DNA from: a virus
Taxonomy: Duplodnaviria > Heunggongvirae > Uroviricota > Caudoviricetes
Length of the DNA stretch: 64,000 nucleotides
Direction: 5' to 3' (one strand)
IMG/VR virus record: IMGVR_UViG_3300045988_134250
Every line of letters starts with the position of its first letter. Position 1 is the first letter of the stretch. This document shows positions 2,202-9,728 of this stretch, in pieces. Made by a program: the position numbers and the translations under genes. The notes under the pieces are model-generated. The model worked only from the letters and a program-made list of their open reading frames with translations, made no database searches and was not told the DNA's origin.

Positions 2202-2969
2202 TCACCCCATAGATATCGAGGTTTCGGTAATAATACGTTTTGCGTCCAACTCCCATGCTGTGATCACGTCTGCAATCACACTTATCGGCGCTTGTGTGGC
2301 ATAAATACGCTCTTCTCCAATTGGTGCTGAAACATCCGTAAAGCCGACTTCTTTGGCATCCTGTATCGAGCAAATCAGCGGGACCGGGACACGAACAAGG
2401 TGAGTGGTTGCTTCAAATTGTGTACCTGTCATCAGGCGAAGCCGTGCGCCCAGCGAATTACACATCAGACTCATGGTCGCTTTATCAGTTGCCATTAACG
2501 TAACGTCATACGTCAGAATGGCCTGGGTGTATTCCAGTTCTGCTAAAGGCATTCCGGTATCCGGTTCGCAAAAACTGGCTACTTTTTTGCGGTCAATCTG
2601 CTGATCATCGTTGATATAATTGATATCCATATTGCGTGAGATATTGACCAGGGGGAGAGCATCCCGGTTAATGTTCTGGTTTTCAGGTTTTCTCCCTTGC
2701 CCGGCATTTGCGCGACGAACTGCTTTAAGAAACTCGATCGCATTGTCGAAACGGGCCACATAGACACGCTCTGCTGGTGGACGATTCAGGAATGACGCAA
2801 AGCGTTTTTCTTCCGGCGCGGGGGCCACCAGTAAGATATCAGAAAAAATGTTGCTGATTAGCGTCGCAAACGCGTTATCCACGTTTTCAAAGCCCGTGGT
2901 CTGGAATTTTCCTGTGCGTGAGGTTTGCCATTCACCTGTTCGCGCCAGGAGGGTTTTATTTGAAGTCAT
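2202..2969 (-). CDS. Hypothetical phage protein
   Basis: 255 aa ORF, same operon, overlaps the upstream gene at 2966-2969. Confidence 0.35.
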   Translation of the reverse strand: MTSNKTLLARTGEWQTSRTGKFQTTGFENVDNAFATLISNIFSDILLVAPAPEEKRFASFLNRPPAERVYVARFDNAIEFLKAVRRANAGQGRKPENQNINRDALPLVNISRNMDINYINDDQQIDRKKVASFCEPDTGMPLAELEYTQAILTYDVTLMATDKATMSLMCNSLGARLRLMTGTQFEATTHLVRVPVPLICSIQDAKEVGFTDVSAPIGEERIYATQAPISVIADVITAWELDAKRIITETSISMG

Positions 2970-3769
2970 TCGATCACTCCGTTTTGAGTCGTATCAAAAT
3001 TCCTGGCAGGTATGCAGTAGTAAAGCGAACCAACATGCTGTGTGCCGTAGCTAAAAATACGGTGCACGTACCACCAGCGGCGCGCTACGCCGTTTACCAT
3101 CTCTTCATTCCATTCAAGAATTGAGCCGACGGGGACGTTATTTGCTGCAATACGCAGAATCAGAACATCATCGGTTAAGCCATCCTGCTCACCGTCTGCG
3201 TCAATCGCATGGAAAGAGTCACGCCCGTCAGGGTTATCCAGCACATAAACGATTTCAGGTTCCTGGTAAGTCAGTTCGCGTTGGTTGTTATCCAGTTCGG
3301 TGAATGACTCTTCTCCTGTTTCGTCGCTGACTACCCCATATGTGCCAACATCTGGTCGATATAAGAGAGCCTGAAACGCGTCTGGGCTGGATTCAATAAT
3401 CAGCATCCAGTCTGCGCGGATTTGGTCGTTAAAGGCTTTATGCCCGTTATAGCGTGCTTTTAACTGTGGAGTCGGTTCTCTGCCAGCCAGGGAAGATGGA
3501 AGTATGGCTATATCTGATTCGCCAGCATCCGGAGTAAGGCCACCGTTGCTATCAGCAAAATTATCATGGCTATCAGCTTTGGCGGCGGGTTGCTCTTCCA
3601 GAATGCTGAATGAATCCGAACCGGTATTGCCATGTTCCGGCGCGCCTCCTGCATTCGCTTCAATCGGCGCTGGCGTTTCTCTCTGCGTGCTGTCATGTTC
3701 TGACTCCTTACTTGCCAGGTTTGCATCGTCAGCAAACCATTCGTCAAAACGGCCCATAAGCATCCTCAA
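2966..3769 (-). CDS. Hypothetical acidic phage protein
   Basis: 267 aa ORF, Asp/Glu-rich N-terminal half; first gene of the minus-strand block. Confidence 0.35.
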   Translation of the reverse strand: MRMLMGRFDEWFADDANLASKESEHDSTQRETPAPIEANAGGAPEHGNTGSDSFSILEEQPAAKADSHDNFADSNGGLTPDAGESDIAILPSSLAGREPTPQLKARYNGHKAFNDQIRADWMLIIESSPDAFQALLYRPDVGTYGVVSDETGEESFTELDNNQRELTYQEPEIVYVLDNPDGRDSFHAIDADGEQDGLTDDVLILRIAANNVPVGSILEWNEEMVNGVARRWWYVHRIFSYGTQHVGSLYYCIPARNFDTTQNGVIE

Positions 3770-3919
3770 AGGTCGATCTGTCAGGTATCGAAAGGAAGAT
3801 TTTCTGGAGATTGTGATTTTGGATGAAGGAGGGGGAATTCATAAAATGCACTTGCGCACAGTGCAACGGTGCGCTATAGTTATGGCATTCGGTAATCATC
3901 ACGGAGGATCAAATGACTA

Positions 3920-4222
3920 ATGACCAAAAAAATTAACATAAAGGATTTCAGGGATGCGTGGCTTGATGATTTTTTTGAATTTTCAACACCACATAGAAAG
4001 ATACCTCCTGATATTCATATGACATTGTCACGGAAGTTGGACATTATCAATGCCGCAACTACCTGTAAGGATTTAAGATCACCACCAGGTAATCGGTATG
4101 AGGAACTGTCAGGGAAGCTAAATGGCTATTCATCAGTAAGGGTGAATAAGCAATATAGGTTAATTTTTAGGTGGGTTAACGGAAAGGCCGAGGACTTGTA
4201 TCTCGACCCTCACAAATACTAA
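3920..4222 (+). CDS. higB: HigB toxin (RelE/ParE superfamily, plasmid-killer type)
   Basis: 100 aa; C-terminal GKLNGYSSVRVNKQYRLIFRWVNGKAEDLYLDPHKY resembles recalled HigB family; followed by an HTH antitoxin. Confidence 0.8.
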   Translation: MTKKINIKDFRDAWLDDFFEFSTPHRKIPPDIHMTLSRKLDIINAATTCKDLRSPPGNRYEELSGKLNGYSSVRVNKQYRLIFRWVNGKAEDLYLDPHKY

Positions 4223-4292
4223 AACAGATACCCGGTTACGGACCGGGTTCTGACCAGAGTCCACTTAATACGCACGCTAGTAAGGGCAAAAA

Positions 4293-4631
4293 ATGAAACA
4301 GGCAACCAGAAAACCGACGACCGTAGGTGATATCCTGCTGTACGAATACCTGGAGCCGTTAGAGCTGAAGATCAACGAGTTAGCAGAAATACTTCATGTT
4401 CATCGTAACACCGTAAGTGCTCTTGTTAATAATAATCGTAAGCTAACGATGGATATGGCATATCGCCTGGCAAAAGCATTCGATACTTCTGTAGATTTTT
4501 GGATTAATCTTCAGACCGCAGTAGACCTGTGGGAAGTCGAAAATGATATGCGCGTTCAGGAAGAGTTAAGTCGTATCAATACTGCTGAAAAATTTATTTC
4601 TCAGCGGAACCTGAATAAAAAAGCAGCCTGA
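4293..4631 (+). CDS. higA: HigA antitoxin (XRE-type HTH)
   Basis: 112 aa; HTH segment LKINELAEILHVHRNTVSALVNNNRKLTMDMAYRLAKAF; immediately downstream of higB. Confidence 0.8.
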   Translation: MKQATRKPTTVGDILLYEYLEPLELKINELAEILHVHRNTVSALVNNNRKLTMDMAYRLAKAFDTSVDFWINLQTAVDLWEVENDMRVQEELSRINTAEKFISQRNLNKKAA

Positions 4632-4649
4632 TATAGTAAAACACATACA

Positions 4650-4681
4650 AAAAGCCCACTTAGCAAGTGGGCTTTCCTTTG
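4650..4681 (+). terminator. Rho-independent terminator after higA
   Basis: Hairpin aaagcccact-tagc-aagtgggcttt followed by a T-rich run. Confidence 0.6.
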
Positions 4682-4687
4682 TAATTA

Positions 4688-5047
4688 ATGAACATTAAAC
4701 CTATCCGTACAGAACAAGATTATGAGGCCGCACTGCGTGCGGTCGAACCGATGTTCGATAACGAACCGGAAATGAATACTCCGGAAGGTGATTTCTTTGA
4801 GGTTATGTGTCTTCTCATTGAGGAGTACGAGAAAAAACATTACCCAATTGAGCCACCATCACCTATTGAGGCCATTAAATTCCGTATGGAACTGCAAGGA
4901 CTGACCGTGAAGGATCTGGAACCGGCAATTGGTAAGTCAAACCGTGTTTACGAAGTGCTTAATGGGACACGAAATTTGACGTTACCTATGATTCGTCGTT
5001 TACATGCCCAGTTTGGTATTCCACTGGAAAGCCTGGTTGGCGTTTGA
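4688..5047 (+). CDS. Second HigA-family HTH protein (E. coli K-12 HigA type), with no cognate toxin upstream
   Basis: 119 aa; C-terminus GLTVKDLEPAIGKSNRVYEVLNGTRNLTLPMIRRLHAQFGIPLESL parallels recalled E. coli HigA. Confidence 0.6.
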   Translation: MNIKPIRTEQDYEAALRAVEPMFDNEPEMNTPEGDFFEVMCLLIEEYEKKHYPIEPPSPIEAIKFRMELQGLTVKDLEPAIGKSNRVYEVLNGTRNLTLPMIRRLHAQFGIPLESLVGV

Positions 5048-5052
5048 GTTTT

Positions 5053-5077
5053 GCGGTCTGGATGACCGCTGTTTTTA
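5053..5077 (+). terminator. Rho-independent terminator after the second HigA-like gene
   Basis: gcggtc-tggat-gaccgc stem-loop followed by tgttttta. Confidence 0.55.
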
Positions 5078-5110
5078 TAAAAAATAGATACTAGAAATTT
5101 GGTAGCATAT

Positions 5111-5890
5111 ATGAGTACAGATTCATCAGTAAAGAAGACATCTGAATCAGATAAAGAAAATGAGTCCGTTGTTGATTCCGTCAAGAATACAATGGAATAT
5201 GTTATAAAAGATAAAGTATTTAATAAGCTTTTTGCATATATTTTTATATCTTTTCTGGTTGTTAACTGGAGAGATATATTAATTTTGTTCAAATCAAAAG
5301 AAGATGTTCTATATACTCTGTCAATAGTTTTTACCGGTGAAAAAATACAATTTCTTGATGGCGAGATTTTACCTCCTTGGTTTGCCCACTTTTTCTTGCC
5401 GTTTTTCTATGGTGTGATTGCGTCGATTGTGGCACCAGTAATTACACTTGCGGTATCTTGCATTACAACTAAGGTGTACTATAAAATAAAAATTTTGGAC
5501 AATAAAACAGACGAAAACGAGAAAGAGAAATTAGCAAAAAGAGCCAAGAAAAGAGCTGAGCGTGAAATAGAGGCTAGCTATAGCCAACAAAAGCTGGATG
5601 AAAGAAAAAAAGAACTGGAAGACATTTTAAACAAAATAGAAGATGAAAAAGAAAAATATGATAAAATGAAAGAAAGGTTTGATGATGCCATAACGCTTAC
5701 ATATAAAAATATTCACATTTTGCCTACTCTGTATGAGAATAGGAAATGTAAAATTGAAACTCCGCAGGATTTATATGATTTTATTGCAGCAATAAAGAAA
5801 ACATCATTCTATAGTACTGATTTTAATGAATTGTTCTCTGATATTTCTCGATTGTATTCTGAAATGCAAACTGATTTATCAGAAAAGTGA
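5111..5890 (+). CDS. AT-rich membrane protein with two predicted TM helices and a Lys/Glu-rich coiled-coil
   Basis: ORF track starts at a TTG (5099); ATG at 5111 gives MSTDSS...; hydrophobic FAYIFISFLVVNW and FFLPFFYGVIASIVAPVITLAV; KEKLAKRAKKRAEREIEASYSQQKLDERKKELEDILNKIEDEKEKYDKMKERF. Confidence 0.5.
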   Translation: MSTDSSVKKTSESDKENESVVDSVKNTMEYVIKDKVFNKLFAYIFISFLVVNWRDILILFKSKEDVLYTLSIVFTGEKIQFLDGEILPPWFAHFFLPFFYGVIASIVAPVITLAVSCITTKVYYKIKILDNKTDENEKEKLAKRAKKRAEREIEASYSQQKLDERKKELEDILNKIEDEKEKYDKMKERFDDAITLTYKNIHILPTLYENRKCKIETPQDLYDFIAAIKKTSFYSTDFNELFSDISRLYSEMQTDLSEK

Positions 5891-5925
5891 AAGCCTGGCA
5901 TAGACCACCAGGCTATATGTGTGGT

Positions 5926-7119
5926 TTATGCTTTTTTTACATACGCCATAAACATTTTTTCAGCATGTTCTTGTGGCGTTCCTGCCATGACAAGCGCATC
6001 AATAAACGCCTGCTTCTTCAGTGCGAACTGATCGGCCAGGCGTTGCTGAAGCTCCTTGTTTTTCTGTTTCTCACGTTGCAACGCCGCTTCTTTTGCTGCC
6101 GCCCGTTTTTTCTGTGCGTCTGACAACTTTCTGGCCTTGGTCAGTTGGTCACGTAGCTTGTCAATCTTGCCGTTGTCCTTTGCCAGTTTTGTGCTTAAAG
6201 CGGCCTGGCGCTTCTGATAGAGTCTCCATTCTCGCTTGGCAGCGTCAACGTTCGTTTTACTGCTACGATTGCGATTAAACTCCTTCTCGTCTTCTTTTGA
6301 GAAGTGTTTGGTTGTACGGCGGCGATCGTCACCAAATGCAATTTGCGTTGCAGCCTTTTGTAGTGCACGAGCAATACTCATTTGCCAACTTGCGGACTGT
6401 AACCGCGTCATTGAGTGGATCACGTGTTTACAGGCGACGCCTTGTAGCTTAGGGTTACGAACTTTTGGATAGGCGTATTCTTTTGGCGGGGCCAGGGCAA
6501 AGTTACCCGCAGTAGCGATGTAACGATACCAGTATTGATGACGACCACAGTCACAATCGAAAGACACTCGCCCGGCGCACAGTGATTTAGTGATTTTGAG
6601 AGCTGATTTATCGTCTTCTGCGATGTCATCGACCATCTGATCCCATTCTTCAAAGCGTATCCGGACGATATGGTGCTGGTGGACGGATATATCCGATGCT
6701 TCTACGCGGATATTAATCACGTTGTGGCGAAGAGATACGGGGGTAGCTCTTTTGATACCAGATCCGTCATCCACGGCGTTATTTGCACGCTTAATATCGA
6801 TTGCCTGGCTGGATGCCACCAGCTGGGCGTATGTGATGCCAGCCGTCTTGCTGTCATATTTTTCGCGTGTTTTACTCCGTAGCTTTTCGAAACCTTTCAG
6901 GTCGTCTCGCGTGAAGAACGTGCCGCCTTTTTTCTTCCCTAACTTGAGAATATCTTCGGCGGATTTGTTCCTCAGTCTACCTGGCGTCAGCGTCCGGTGA
7001 GCTTGTCGGCGCTTACGGGTTTGTTCTTTCCTGATAAGCTCGAATATACGCGTGAAGTCCTTAGAGGACAGACCGTCAGTGATATAGCGCCCGTCCTGGT
7101 TTTTCAGGAAATCAGGCAT
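5926..7119 (-). CDS. SWIM-type zinc-finger protein with Lys/Arg-rich coiled-coil C-terminus
   Basis: 397 aa; CDCGRHQYWYRY...GVACKHVIH fits CxC...CxH; C-terminal KKRAAAKEAALQREKQKNKELQQRLADQ. Confidence 0.45.
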   Translation of the reverse strand: MPDFLKNQDGRYITDGLSSKDFTRIFELIRKEQTRKRRQAHRTLTPGRLRNKSAEDILKLGKKKGGTFFTRDDLKGFEKLRSKTREKYDSKTAGITYAQLVASSQAIDIKRANNAVDDGSGIKRATPVSLRHNVINIRVEASDISVHQHHIVRIRFEEWDQMVDDIAEDDKSALKITKSLCAGRVSFDCDCGRHQYWYRYIATAGNFALAPPKEYAYPKVRNPKLQGVACKHVIHSMTRLQSASWQMSIARALQKAATQIAFGDDRRRTTKHFSKEDEKEFNRNRSSKTNVDAAKREWRLYQKRQAALSTKLAKDNGKIDKLRDQLTKARKLSDAQKKRAAAKEAALQREKQKNKELQQRLADQFALKKQAFIDALVMAGTPQEHAEKMFMAYVKKA

Positions 7120-7441: not shown

Positions 7442-7634
7442 AACAAAGCCTCTCAGTCATAACCTGGGGGAAACTGTATGCAGGGTGTGAAATGTGAGAA
7501 ACAGACAGGCCACCAGTTCAGGGGGATGTGGTTCATAAATCCCCTCACTGGTGACAAGTGACTTTCATTAATCTTTGTGCGGGGGCCAGCTTCATTTGCT
7601 GGCATTAGATTAAAAATTAAACGGAGTGAATGAC

Positions 7635-7769
7635 ATGGATGTTATATTCGAATTATTAATGCTAATTGATCTGTTTATGAACGCTTCATTGACCACTCAA
7701 ATACTCGCGTCAATATTTTTGTTACTCTTCTACCTGGTATTGAGGGAGTTAACAAAGCTACTAATGTGA
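7635..7769 (+). CDS. Candidate small hydrophobic peptide (44 aa)
   Basis: Manual translation MDVIFELLMLIDLFMNASLTTQILASIFLLLFYLVLRELTKLLM; GGAG 9 nt upstream of the ATG; below the ORF-track size cut-off. Confidence 0.3.
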   Translation: MDVIFELLMLIDLFMNASLTTQILASIFLLLFYLVLRELTKLLM

Positions 7770-8691: not shown

Positions 8692-9315
8692 ATGAAGGAC
8701 GGTGTAGTGAAGTTAAGGGTTTTAGGGACCGCGCTCGCGGCTATGTTGGGATGCGTATCTGTTAATACAGCCAATGCAACTGCGTTACCTGCACAATTCA
8801 GGGCAGGGCAGCAGGTTATGAATAACGCTGGTGGGGATCATTCACAAGCGGCAATTATGGACTTTTGCAAGAGAGAGGGCATTCCATTACGGCCTGTTGG
8901 AACTCAGTTTATTGGTAAAACTGACTTTTGCGTTTTTGCATATACAGCATATCTGACGGACAAAGCTATAACAAAAACAGGTTATTCAACCAAAGATACT
9001 CTTTCCAGATTAAGTCAGGGATGGCAGCAATTCGAAGTGTATCGCCAGCAAGGATTAGGTGAGTTATTACAACCACTTTTTATGCTTGCGCTGGTGCCCG
9101 AGGGGCAGCAATTTTTGGTTAAAAAGGGAATGCTTCGCCAAAGTGATATTGCCGGGTTCGATAGCATGATGGCTTATGAGCGCAAACTAACCGAGCAGCG
9201 AAATAAAAAACCATCTGCTTCATGTGTGCAAAGTAAAACAGCAGAATACAGTGCAGTAGCCGGGCCTTTAGCCAAACAAATGGCAGAGCAATGGTGTAAA
9301 AAATACGGGCAATAA
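8692..9315 (+). CDS. Putative secreted protein
   Basis: 207 aa; N-terminal hydrophobic signal-like segment LRVLGTALAAMLGCVSVNTANA. Confidence 0.45.
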   Translation: MKDGVVKLRVLGTALAAMLGCVSVNTANATALPAQFRAGQQVMNNAGGDHSQAAIMDFCKREGIPLRPVGTQFIGKTDFCVFAYTAYLTDKAITKTGYSTKDTLSRLSQGWQQFEVYRQQGLGELLQPLFMLALVPEGQQFLVKKGMLRQSDIAGFDSMMAYERKLTEQRNKKPSASCVQSKTAEYSAVAGPLAKQMAEQWCKKYGQ

Positions 9316-9335: not shown

Positions 9336-9728
9336 TTGAAAAGATTGGCTATTGCTTTACTGGCGTCTTTCCCTTTGATCGCGAGCGCCGGAAATTTACA
9401 AGTTAAGTGCGGTAGGTTTGATATAAAAATCTATCCAGATGCCATATTTCTGAATGGGAATAAGGTTGATAACGCACACCGAAAAACTGAATCTGACGTA
9501 ATGAGCTATGTGTTCCAGGAGTATGCGGAGATGGGGGGAACTTACACGCTGTACTCGCTGGATGTTCCTTCTCGCGGTGATATGACATTATCCCATCAAT
9601 GGCAGAACGCCGATGGCGAAGCTCTGCGCGAGGTTAAAACAGAAAAATGTGGCACTTTCCATTCTTTTAAAGGGAAAGCGCCAAATGTTAAATCTGTGCT
9701 TGAAAAACAGCGCGCAGGTGAGCTTTAA
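9336..9728 (+). CDS. Putative secreted or periplasmic protein
   Basis: 130 aa; signal peptide MKRLAIALLASFPLIASAGN; convergent overlap with the minus-strand gene at 9725. Confidence 0.5.
   Translation: MKRLAIALLASFPLIASAGNLQVKCGRFDIKIYPDAIFLNGNKVDNAHRKTESDVMSYVFQEYAEMGGTYTLYSLDVPSRGDMTLSHQWQNADGEALREVKTEKCGTFHSFKGKAPNVKSVLEKQRAGEL

Follow-up and report, generated by a model that had tools for sequence, protein, structure and literature searches.

Two kinds of HigB-HigA toxin–antitoxin (TA) module have relatives of known structure: the PF05015/TIGR02607 kind, which includes P. putida GraTA (6F8S) and E. coli YbaQ (2EBY), and the kind found in E. coli K-12 (PF09907; 5IFG, 5YCL, 6JQ4). At the membrane, T4 Imm, P22 SieA, HK97 gp15 and lambda RexB are small inner-membrane exclusion or abortive-infection proteins of phages. 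The defence system PD-lambda-2 joins a HigB-like protein (A) and a HigA–peptidase fusion (B) to a third gene (C) (Vassallo et al. 2022, PMC9519451), and the gpA/gpQ slot of P2 prophages is an anti-phage hotspot that holds old and tin (Rousset et al. 2022, PMC9122126). Here we compare with these systems a plus-strand island at about 3820-5915 of a 64,000-nucleotide (nt) stretch of Caudoviricetes DNA, IMG/VR record IMGVR_UViG_3300045988_134250, hereafter the window. The island carries a higB-higA pair (3920-4631), a second higA gene, higA2 (4688-5047), and a gene that we call X (5111-5890), which encodes a predicted inner-membrane protein of 259 amino acids (aa).

The region of the window under study is 99.9% identical to the E. 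coli plasmid pB2C_96; its identity to phage D6 is 97.8%, up to window position ~5128. The window is a D6-like (P1-related) phage-plasmid. The original prediction, made from the letters of the window, had paired the orphan HigA with X as an antitoxin-first toxin or abortive-infection unit. Our comparison of related elements leads to a different reading, which we hold with high confidence: HigA2 would be the leftover of an older TA module, and X an independent gene. The island as a whole is probably a composite accessory slot in the D6-like tail operon, made up of three units that differ in age and status.

HigA2 appears to be a stranded antitoxin

The 119-aa product of 4688-5047 (plus strand), HigA2, matched the E. 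coli K-12 HigA structures 5IFG_B and 5YCL_A over residues 6-112 (phmmer, E = 2.5 × 10−7). Like K-12 HigA, it joins an N-terminal helical domain to a C-terminal helix-turn-helix (HTH) domain; K-12 HigA is longer, at 138 aa, and sequence identity between the two is low. HigA2 had been described from the start as a K-12-type HigA with no toxin upstream of it in the window, and this description holds. Where it departs from the K-12 module is in its surroundings, since the HigA2 of the window lacks a toxin, promoter palindromes and a Shine-Dalgarno sequence, and in its fate, orphan copies being in decay.

The toxin that belongs to HigA2 is found in sister D6-like plasmids. At the same locus, these encode a 100-aa PF09907 HigB of the K-12 type (E = 3 × 10−34), separated by a gap of 3 nt from a HigA2 with 99% aa identity to that of the window, with an X homologue next in line. 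Such plasmids include pZ1323HEC0010-2, p95_MLI121 and a Salmonella Concord plasmid, and among the loci that we compared (denoted by L and a number) the cognate PF09907 HigB lies upstream of HigA2 in L004, L009, L010 and L029-34. In the window this HigB is absent, and a hairpin and the unrelated higB-higA pair stand in its place. DNA similarity between the window and L004 breaks off at 3819 and restarts at 4681, that is, at the higA2 start codon. The window segment in between (3820-4680, plus strand) comprises a promoter region, higB, higA and the hairpin. Its counterpart in L004, 4120-4502, contains the promoter and the PF09907 higB that the segment appears to have replaced.

The control signals of the older module differ between the two loci in the same way. 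In L004, a GGAG lies within the last part of higB, and two TCCCA-N3-TGGGA palindromes, which may be HigA2 operators, are found around the promoter. In the window, we found neither a Shine-Dalgarno sequence nor a GGAG before the ATG at 4688, and no TCCCA-N3-TGGGA palindrome in or near the island. These comparisons indicate that HigA2 is the stranded antitoxin of an older K-12-type higBA, whose toxin gene, with its promoter, its palindromes and the Shine-Dalgarno sequence, gave way to the higB-higA pair now at 3920-4631. The loss of the toxin gene and of its control signals would have taken one single cassette swap.

Existing annotations of phage D6 and of RefSeq plasmids already name HigB and both HigA genes, so their identification is routine, and the locus is of a known kind, a prophage accessory slot that combines a TA module with an uncharacterized gene. 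What is added here is a documented history of the cassette swap, together with a membrane-protein family that is a new candidate for phage exclusion. The swap itself appears to be a clean natural TA cassette replacement, in which a complete TA pair of foreign origin took the place of a toxin gene; the antitoxin left behind can be traced through relaxed selection, nonsense, frameshift and truncation over about 100 sequenced plasmids.

Decay of higA2 beside an intact X

We next consider what has become of higA2 among its relatives. Across 5,426 complete E. coli genomes, higA2 was present on 95 plasmids, full length in 44 and accompanied by the cognate higB in 19. A full-length copy was missing from 51, and most of the sampled members of this group kept only codons 1-65, the HTH half being deleted. 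The same truncation at codon 65, next to an intact X, occurred in 10 of 22 IMG/VR loci and in L005; X was also intact in plasmid tblastn matches of the truncated-higA2 allele type. We attribute the cut at codon 65 to a recombination tract that came in from the X side. Other orphan copies are broken within the gene, by a frameshift in L027 and by a nonsense codon at position 69 in L028. The same codon 69 (window 4892-4894) reads CAG (Q) in most copies, CTG (L; Q69L) in the window and stop in L028.

Polymorphism tells of a similar course. At similar synonymous diversity (pS ~0.15), the ratio of nonsynonymous to synonymous polymorphism (pN/pS) was 0.10 in orphan copies of higA2 and 0.01 in copies paired with higB; constraint on the orphan is relaxed about ten-fold and is still present. 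X, by comparison, was intact in almost all D6/P1-like loci sampled, with frameshifts in L017 and L033. Its pN/pS was 0.2-0.4 within the four allele groups with measurable divergence, and X is therefore a real coding gene. HigA2 thus has a PF09907 toxin of its own in sister plasmids, and X stays intact where higA2 has decayed, both of which speak against an antitoxin-first pair. By these lines of evidence HigA2 is a decaying leftover and not the partner of X.

X alleles reassort independently of TA architecture

X is far more diverse than the DNA around it. Within backbones that are 97-100% identical, X varies between 38 and 80% nt identity, and its variants fall into at least ten allele groups with 29-79% aa identity between groups. 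Across elements that carry X alleles only 29-79% identical, HigA2 is 94-100% identical. Co-variation of the two proteins would be expected if HigA2 were a protein-level antitoxin of X; it was not seen, and the pairing is therefore unsupported on this count. Allele groups of X are, moreover, shared across TA architectures. One group is common to L004, of type B (higB-higA2-X), and L015, of type A, and another is common to L008 (type A) and to L030, L031 and L034 (type B). From this distribution, X alleles appear to reassort independently of TA architecture.

Nor do the two genes depend on each other for their occurrence. Besides the absence of a full-length higA2 from 51 of 95 plasmids, X homologues without HigA occur in five other contexts. 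One lies in the P2 gpA/gpQ slot (L042); in P2-like prophages, another stands alone between gpS and gpV, on the opposite strand; a third is in the nin region of a lambdoid prophage (L037). In podovirus-like prophages of Serratia, further homologues sit between the capsid gene and a gene at the scaffold position, and others are in non-phage islands. One X homologue, likewise with no HigA, is downstream of a TacA/TacT-like pair. Altogether, X reads as an autonomous, rapidly diversifying gene on temperate phages and other mobile elements.

Some of these contexts hold features of their own. In the P2 gpA/gpQ slot (L042 2431-4723), the X homologue is preceded on the same strand by a 503-aa open reading frame (ORF) with no Pfam match, and in the lambdoid nin region (L037 4250-5666) by a 176-aa same-strand ORF, likewise with no Pfam match; each is a possible partner. 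The X homologue of an Enterobacter plasmid has a transposase-like ORF fragment directly upstream, and its context is uninformative. P2 orf30 was considered as a possible homologue of the X relative between gpS and gpV and was dropped when a tblastn search of 50,697 phage records detected relatives of X in D6 alone. A contig scan with the X family profile found no relative.

X is a predicted membrane protein of a rare family

X spans 5111-5890 on the plus strand. Its conserved start is the ATG at 5111, giving 259 aa as in the RefSeq annotation, and not the TTG at 5099. The gene has a GC content of 30-34%, compared with 45-52% in the flanks. The original prediction of two transmembrane (TM) helices and a Lys/Glu-rich coiled coil is borne out: hydropathy places hydrophobic segments at residues 40-60 and 92-118, and residues 119-210 are rich in K and E, with 23 K + R and 22 D + E. 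AlphaFold modeling from a 4-sequence alignment was unusable, with a predicted local distance difference test (pLDDT) score of 38; a 35-sequence alignment raised the mean pLDDT to 76.6. In the resulting model, helices 39-51 and 53-61 form TM1 with a kink at N52-W53, a short helix follows at 66-74, and a single continuous helix at 89-210 (pLDDT 87-97) comprises TM2 and a charged stalk of ~90 residues that leads to a small helical head at 218-258. With lysines after TM2 and acidic residues before it, the positive-inside rule predicts that the coiled coil and both termini of the modeled protein lie in the cytoplasm.

Conservation within the family is concentrated in the membrane part, where mean pairwise identity is 55%, compared with 24% in the stalk and 32% in the head. 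Over 35 family sequences, four residues (N52, P97, G101 and P109) never vary, and W53 is nearly invariant. The family is rare, with 32 cluster representatives at E ≤ 0.001 among 1.84 billion in a profile search. X matched phrog_8191 (E = 7.5 × 10−91), its PHROGs family, whose function is unknown, and by sequence it belongs to a rare membrane-protein family that lacks a Pfam model and is annotated as hypothetical only.

We searched for homologies that might tie X to a function. In Pfam, NCBIfam and PADLOC, matches to X and 27-35 family members were sporadic and confined to coiled-coil models such as LmuB, JetC and ZapB, and X matched no PADLOC family at E ≤ 0.1. In Foldseek searches of the PDB and BFVD, the X model had no structural neighbour with E < 0.8; two-TM NaK channels formed the top PDB rows at a probability of ~0.1 and were discounted as evidence. 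Sequence comparison with the PDB returned a weak 'BONZAI' match and coiled-coil matches only, which we judged to be noise. Homology to a known virion or lysis protein, named in the original prediction as grounds for abandoning it, was looked for, and no such family matched: X had no match among lysis families, its PHROG matches were all of unknown function, and its neighbours are tail and TA genes. Upstream of X, no convincing sigma-70 promoter was identified, a consensus scan performing at chance (8 sites compared with 6.8 expected), and no operator-like inverted repeat was found.

A possible role for X in phage exclusion

The slot that holds X turns over rapidly and lies between conserved core genes of the phage; its flanks are 97-100% identical, and they abut in P1, where the slot is absent. 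In this respect the locus resembles the 'moron' hotspots of prophages, such as those of P2 (old/tin, gpA/gpQ): it too is short, subject to high turnover, on the opposite strand and AT-rich. It differs from the gpA/gpQ hotspot in lying within a P1/D6-type tail operon and in the nature of its turnover, which involves the alleles of one family and not unrelated systems. X likewise shares with T4 Imm, P22 SieA, HK97 gp15 and RexB that it is prophage-encoded, predicted to be an inner-membrane protein and non-essential; those proteins are not known to have the long coiled coil, predicted to be cytoplasmic, and the head of X. No sequence or fold relationship of X was detected in the PDB, BFVD, Pfam, PHROGs-annotated families or PADLOC.

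Given this setting, a part for X as an exclusion or abortive-infection effector, as had been suggested, is plausible from context. We put it forward tentatively that X serves exclusion or defence, because its conserved membrane module and variable cytoplasmic part, its positions in accessory slots and its allele diversity all fit such a function. X would be expressed from the plasmid prophage in the lysogen, where its coiled coil would hold copies together in an inner-membrane oligomer that excludes other phages, with the conserved membrane module as effector. It might form a pore or leak that collapses the membrane once infection is sensed by the variable cytoplasmic part (abortive infection), or it might block the entry of DNA, the phage genome (superinfection exclusion). 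In either case, the variable cytoplasmic part would set specificity.

A more specific proposal is more speculative still: that X is the founding member of a new single-gene family whose proteins exclude phages by acting at the membrane, and in which the two-TM unit with N52, P97, G101 and P109 would be the effector and the hypervariable stalk and head an allele-specific sensor, its many alleles mediating exclusion between competing D6-like relatives. If this were true, prophages of P1/D6-, P2-, lambda- and podovirus-like types would carry members of the family in their accessory slots. Members are found at such sites in temperate phages of several unrelated types, with allelic diversity of a conflict-like kind, and X is a reasonable and cheap candidate exclusion factor in phage-plasmids that are clinically common in E. 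coli, Salmonella and Klebsiella.

X could instead have nothing to do with phage exclusion and act in lysogenic conversion or host physiology, or in the phage life cycle through lysis timing, DNA entry or membrane anchoring. We consider this unlikely, though it accords with the lack of any defence-family match, with the presence of some homologues in non-phage islands and with the position of X beside tail genes, the 3′ end of gene 25 diverging along with it. Against it, X is absent from P1, in which genes 25 and 7 abut, and P1-type morphogenesis therefore does not require it; X is AT-rich and lies on the strand opposite to the late operon, and one homologue resides in the P2 gpA/gpQ anti-phage hotspot. 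Its extreme allele diversity in near-identical backbones is typical of conflict genes. A lysis role fits poorly with the absence of a lysis-family match and with a coiled coil that the positive-inside rule predicts to be cytoplasmic, unlike that of spanins.

Alternative readings of the locus

Several observations weigh against a leftover HigA2 beside an independent X. A hairpin and T-run precede X, and no convincing promoter was found for it. No homology ties X to a function, the PADLOC searches having returned only coiled-coil noise and those of PDB and BFVD no structural neighbour with E < 0.8. The pN/pS of orphan HigA2 is 0.10 and not 1, a sign of purifying selection, and some residual role is possible. 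HigB, HigA and X have been kept together as a trio through deep divergence between E. coli and Klebsiella types (26% identity for HigB, 28% for HigA and ~33-35% for X), and the trio has moved as one block into Klebsiella IncFIB plasmids; such conservation and block transfer would fit a functional three-gene module.

This last point underlies the strongest rival, in which the K-12-type HigB, HigA2 and X would form an ancestral tripartite defence derived from a TA system, the other HigBA having taken over the TA role in the window. We regard it as improbable. In its favor, beyond the conservation of the trio at ~26-35% identity, the whole island of a Klebsiella P1-like phage-plasmid (L032 4022-5752; also L036) recurs in IncFIB plasmids of Klebsiella (96% identity), where it has no phage context, and another X homologue is found just downstream of a TacA/TacT-like TA pair. 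PD-lambda-2, whose HigB/HigA-like pair defends only together with a third gene (PMC9519451), offers a precedent, and the relatives of type B share its layout of HigB, HigA-like protein and third gene. HigA2 also matches the N-terminal domain of the PADLOC profile PD-Lambda-2_B (positions 1-119 of 402, E = 1.3 × 10−41).

The likeness to PD-lambda-2 ends there. HigA2 stops at position 119 of the 402-position profile and lacks the peptidase domain of the B protein, neither HigB matched PD-Lambda-2_A, and X did not match PD-Lambda-2_C (E ≤ 0.1), X appearing instead as an independent gene. A tripartite unit is also hard to square with the behavior of X, which reassorts freely with TA architecture, outlasts both the loss of HigB and the decay of HigA2, and stands alone in four other prophage contexts. 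In Klebsiella, the reverse is seen as well. The island of the large non-phage IncFIB plasmid pQDE2-C (L007 4022-6812) is flanked by insertion sequence (IS) elements and has IS903B inserted in X, and its higBA persists. An X match is present in 55 Klebsiella plasmids in PLSDB; the other Klebsiella plasmid matches cover only the N-terminal half of X.

The pair of the original prediction, in which HigA2 would neutralize or repress a membrane-damaging X, we consider highly improbable: in every D6/P1-like element sampled, HigA2 and X are neighbours in the same orientation, the modeled X is built like a membrane effector and truncated variants retain the N-terminal 65 residues of HigA2 (the toxin-binding part in the K-12 HigA structure 5IFG), but HigA2 has its PF09907 toxin in sister plasmids, its HTH half is gone from most of the 51 plasmids (of 95) without a full-length copy, with frameshift and nonsense copies elsewhere, and X intact, HigA2 is nearly invariant and reassorts with X alleles of 29-100% identity, X homologues occur without HigA, a T-run hairpin and a 63-nt gap separate the two genes, and in the window HigA2 has neither a Shine-Dalgarno sequence nor its putative operator palindrome. 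As a caution, an orphan antitoxin plus a neighbour need not mean a new TA pair.

The hairpin in question lies between HigA2 and X at 5053-5079 (plus strand). It is small and GC-rich, with a 6-bp stem at 5053-5069 followed by the T-run TGTTTTTATA. The same sequence is present in L004 and missing from the truncated-HigA2 variant L005.

The intact HigBA pair

The first unit of the island, which we read as stranding HigA2 when it arrived, had been called a canonical higB-higA pair, and profile searches agree. The product of 3920-4222 (plus strand) is a GraT-like HigB toxin of the RelE superfamily (PF05015, E = 9.2 × 10−35, 119 bits against a cut-off of 27). It also matched phrog_3066, 'toxin of TA system' (E = 5 × 10−37), its closest solved relative is the toxin chain 6F8S_B (E = 2.6 × 10−14), and it had no PADLOC match at E ≤ 0.1. 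The cognate HigA antitoxin (4293-4631, plus strand) is YbaQ-like, scoring 102.5 bits against TIGR02607 (cut-off 47.7) and matching the E. coli YbaQ structure 2EBY with E = 1 × 10−53. The toxin gene precedes the antitoxin gene by 70 nt, the reversed order typical of hig modules, and a strong hairpin with an 11-13-bp stem follows at 4651-4675 that is terminator-like on both strands in hairpin scans.

On this evidence, 3920-4631 reads as an intact toxin-first HigB(PF05015)/HigA TA module of standard type. It shares gene order, a RelE-fold HigB and an HTH_3 HigA with the described PF05015/TIGR02607 modules, P. putida GraTA and E. coli YbaQ, and differs from them only in its setting, inside a phage tail operon and not on a chromosome or classical plasmid. 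The module would probably serve in plasmid addiction and possibly also in defence. Upstream of higB, an inverted repeat TGCACT-N7-AGTGCA at window 3847-3865 is a candidate operator of this intact HigBA.

Insertion site and flanking tail genes

All ORFs of the island lie on the plus strand (3920-4222, 4293-4631, 4688-5047 and 5099/5111-5890). The ORF list, hairpin scan and GC content reproduced the original placement of these ORFs, of both hairpins and of the AT-rich last gene. The minus-strand genes to the left are homologues of the P1 tail and baseplate genes 5, 6, 24 and 7, and those to the right are homologues of P1 genes 25 and 26. Directly flanking the island, the gene 7 homologue (2966-3769, minus strand) matched the tail protein family phrog_1906 (E = 1.6 × 10−116), its D6 counterpart, orf69, being annotated as 'similar to P1 gene 7'; the gene 25 homologue (5926-7119, minus strand) matched the tail protein family phrog_1722 (E = 4 × 10−196) and has 57% aa identity to P1 gp25. 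A terminator-like hairpin follows gene 25 at 5892-5914 (minus strand).

In P1 itself, genes 26-25-7-24-6-5 are contiguous, with only 3 nt between the end of gene 25 and the start of gene 7. Because these two genes abut in P1, we read the plus-strand island (~3820-5915) as an insertion that splits the late tail operon, and the sequence comparison thus upholds the earlier view of acquired cargo interrupting minus-strand structural genes. The 3′ end of gene 25 (window 5893-5992) is ~84% identical to D6, compared with 96-97% for the rest of the gene, and we therefore suggest that recombination tracts that swap X alleles reach into the C-terminus of the tail protein. Between 3600 and 6100, a scan found 9 terminator-like sites compared with 1.9 expected, and an Rfam scan of the same interval returned nothing close to a gathering score.

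Variation is not confined to this slot. The intergenic region between gene 26 and mat (window 7442-7769; L002 7835-8406) is a second variable slot, in which pB2C_96 carries an extra RelE/HigA pair that is missing from the window despite the 99.9% identity of the two. After the mat homologue, the window has two plus-strand ORFs with signal-peptide-like N-termini (8692-9315 and 9336-9728), at a position whose equivalent in D6 is annotated as a putative SimB-like superimmunity accessory protein.

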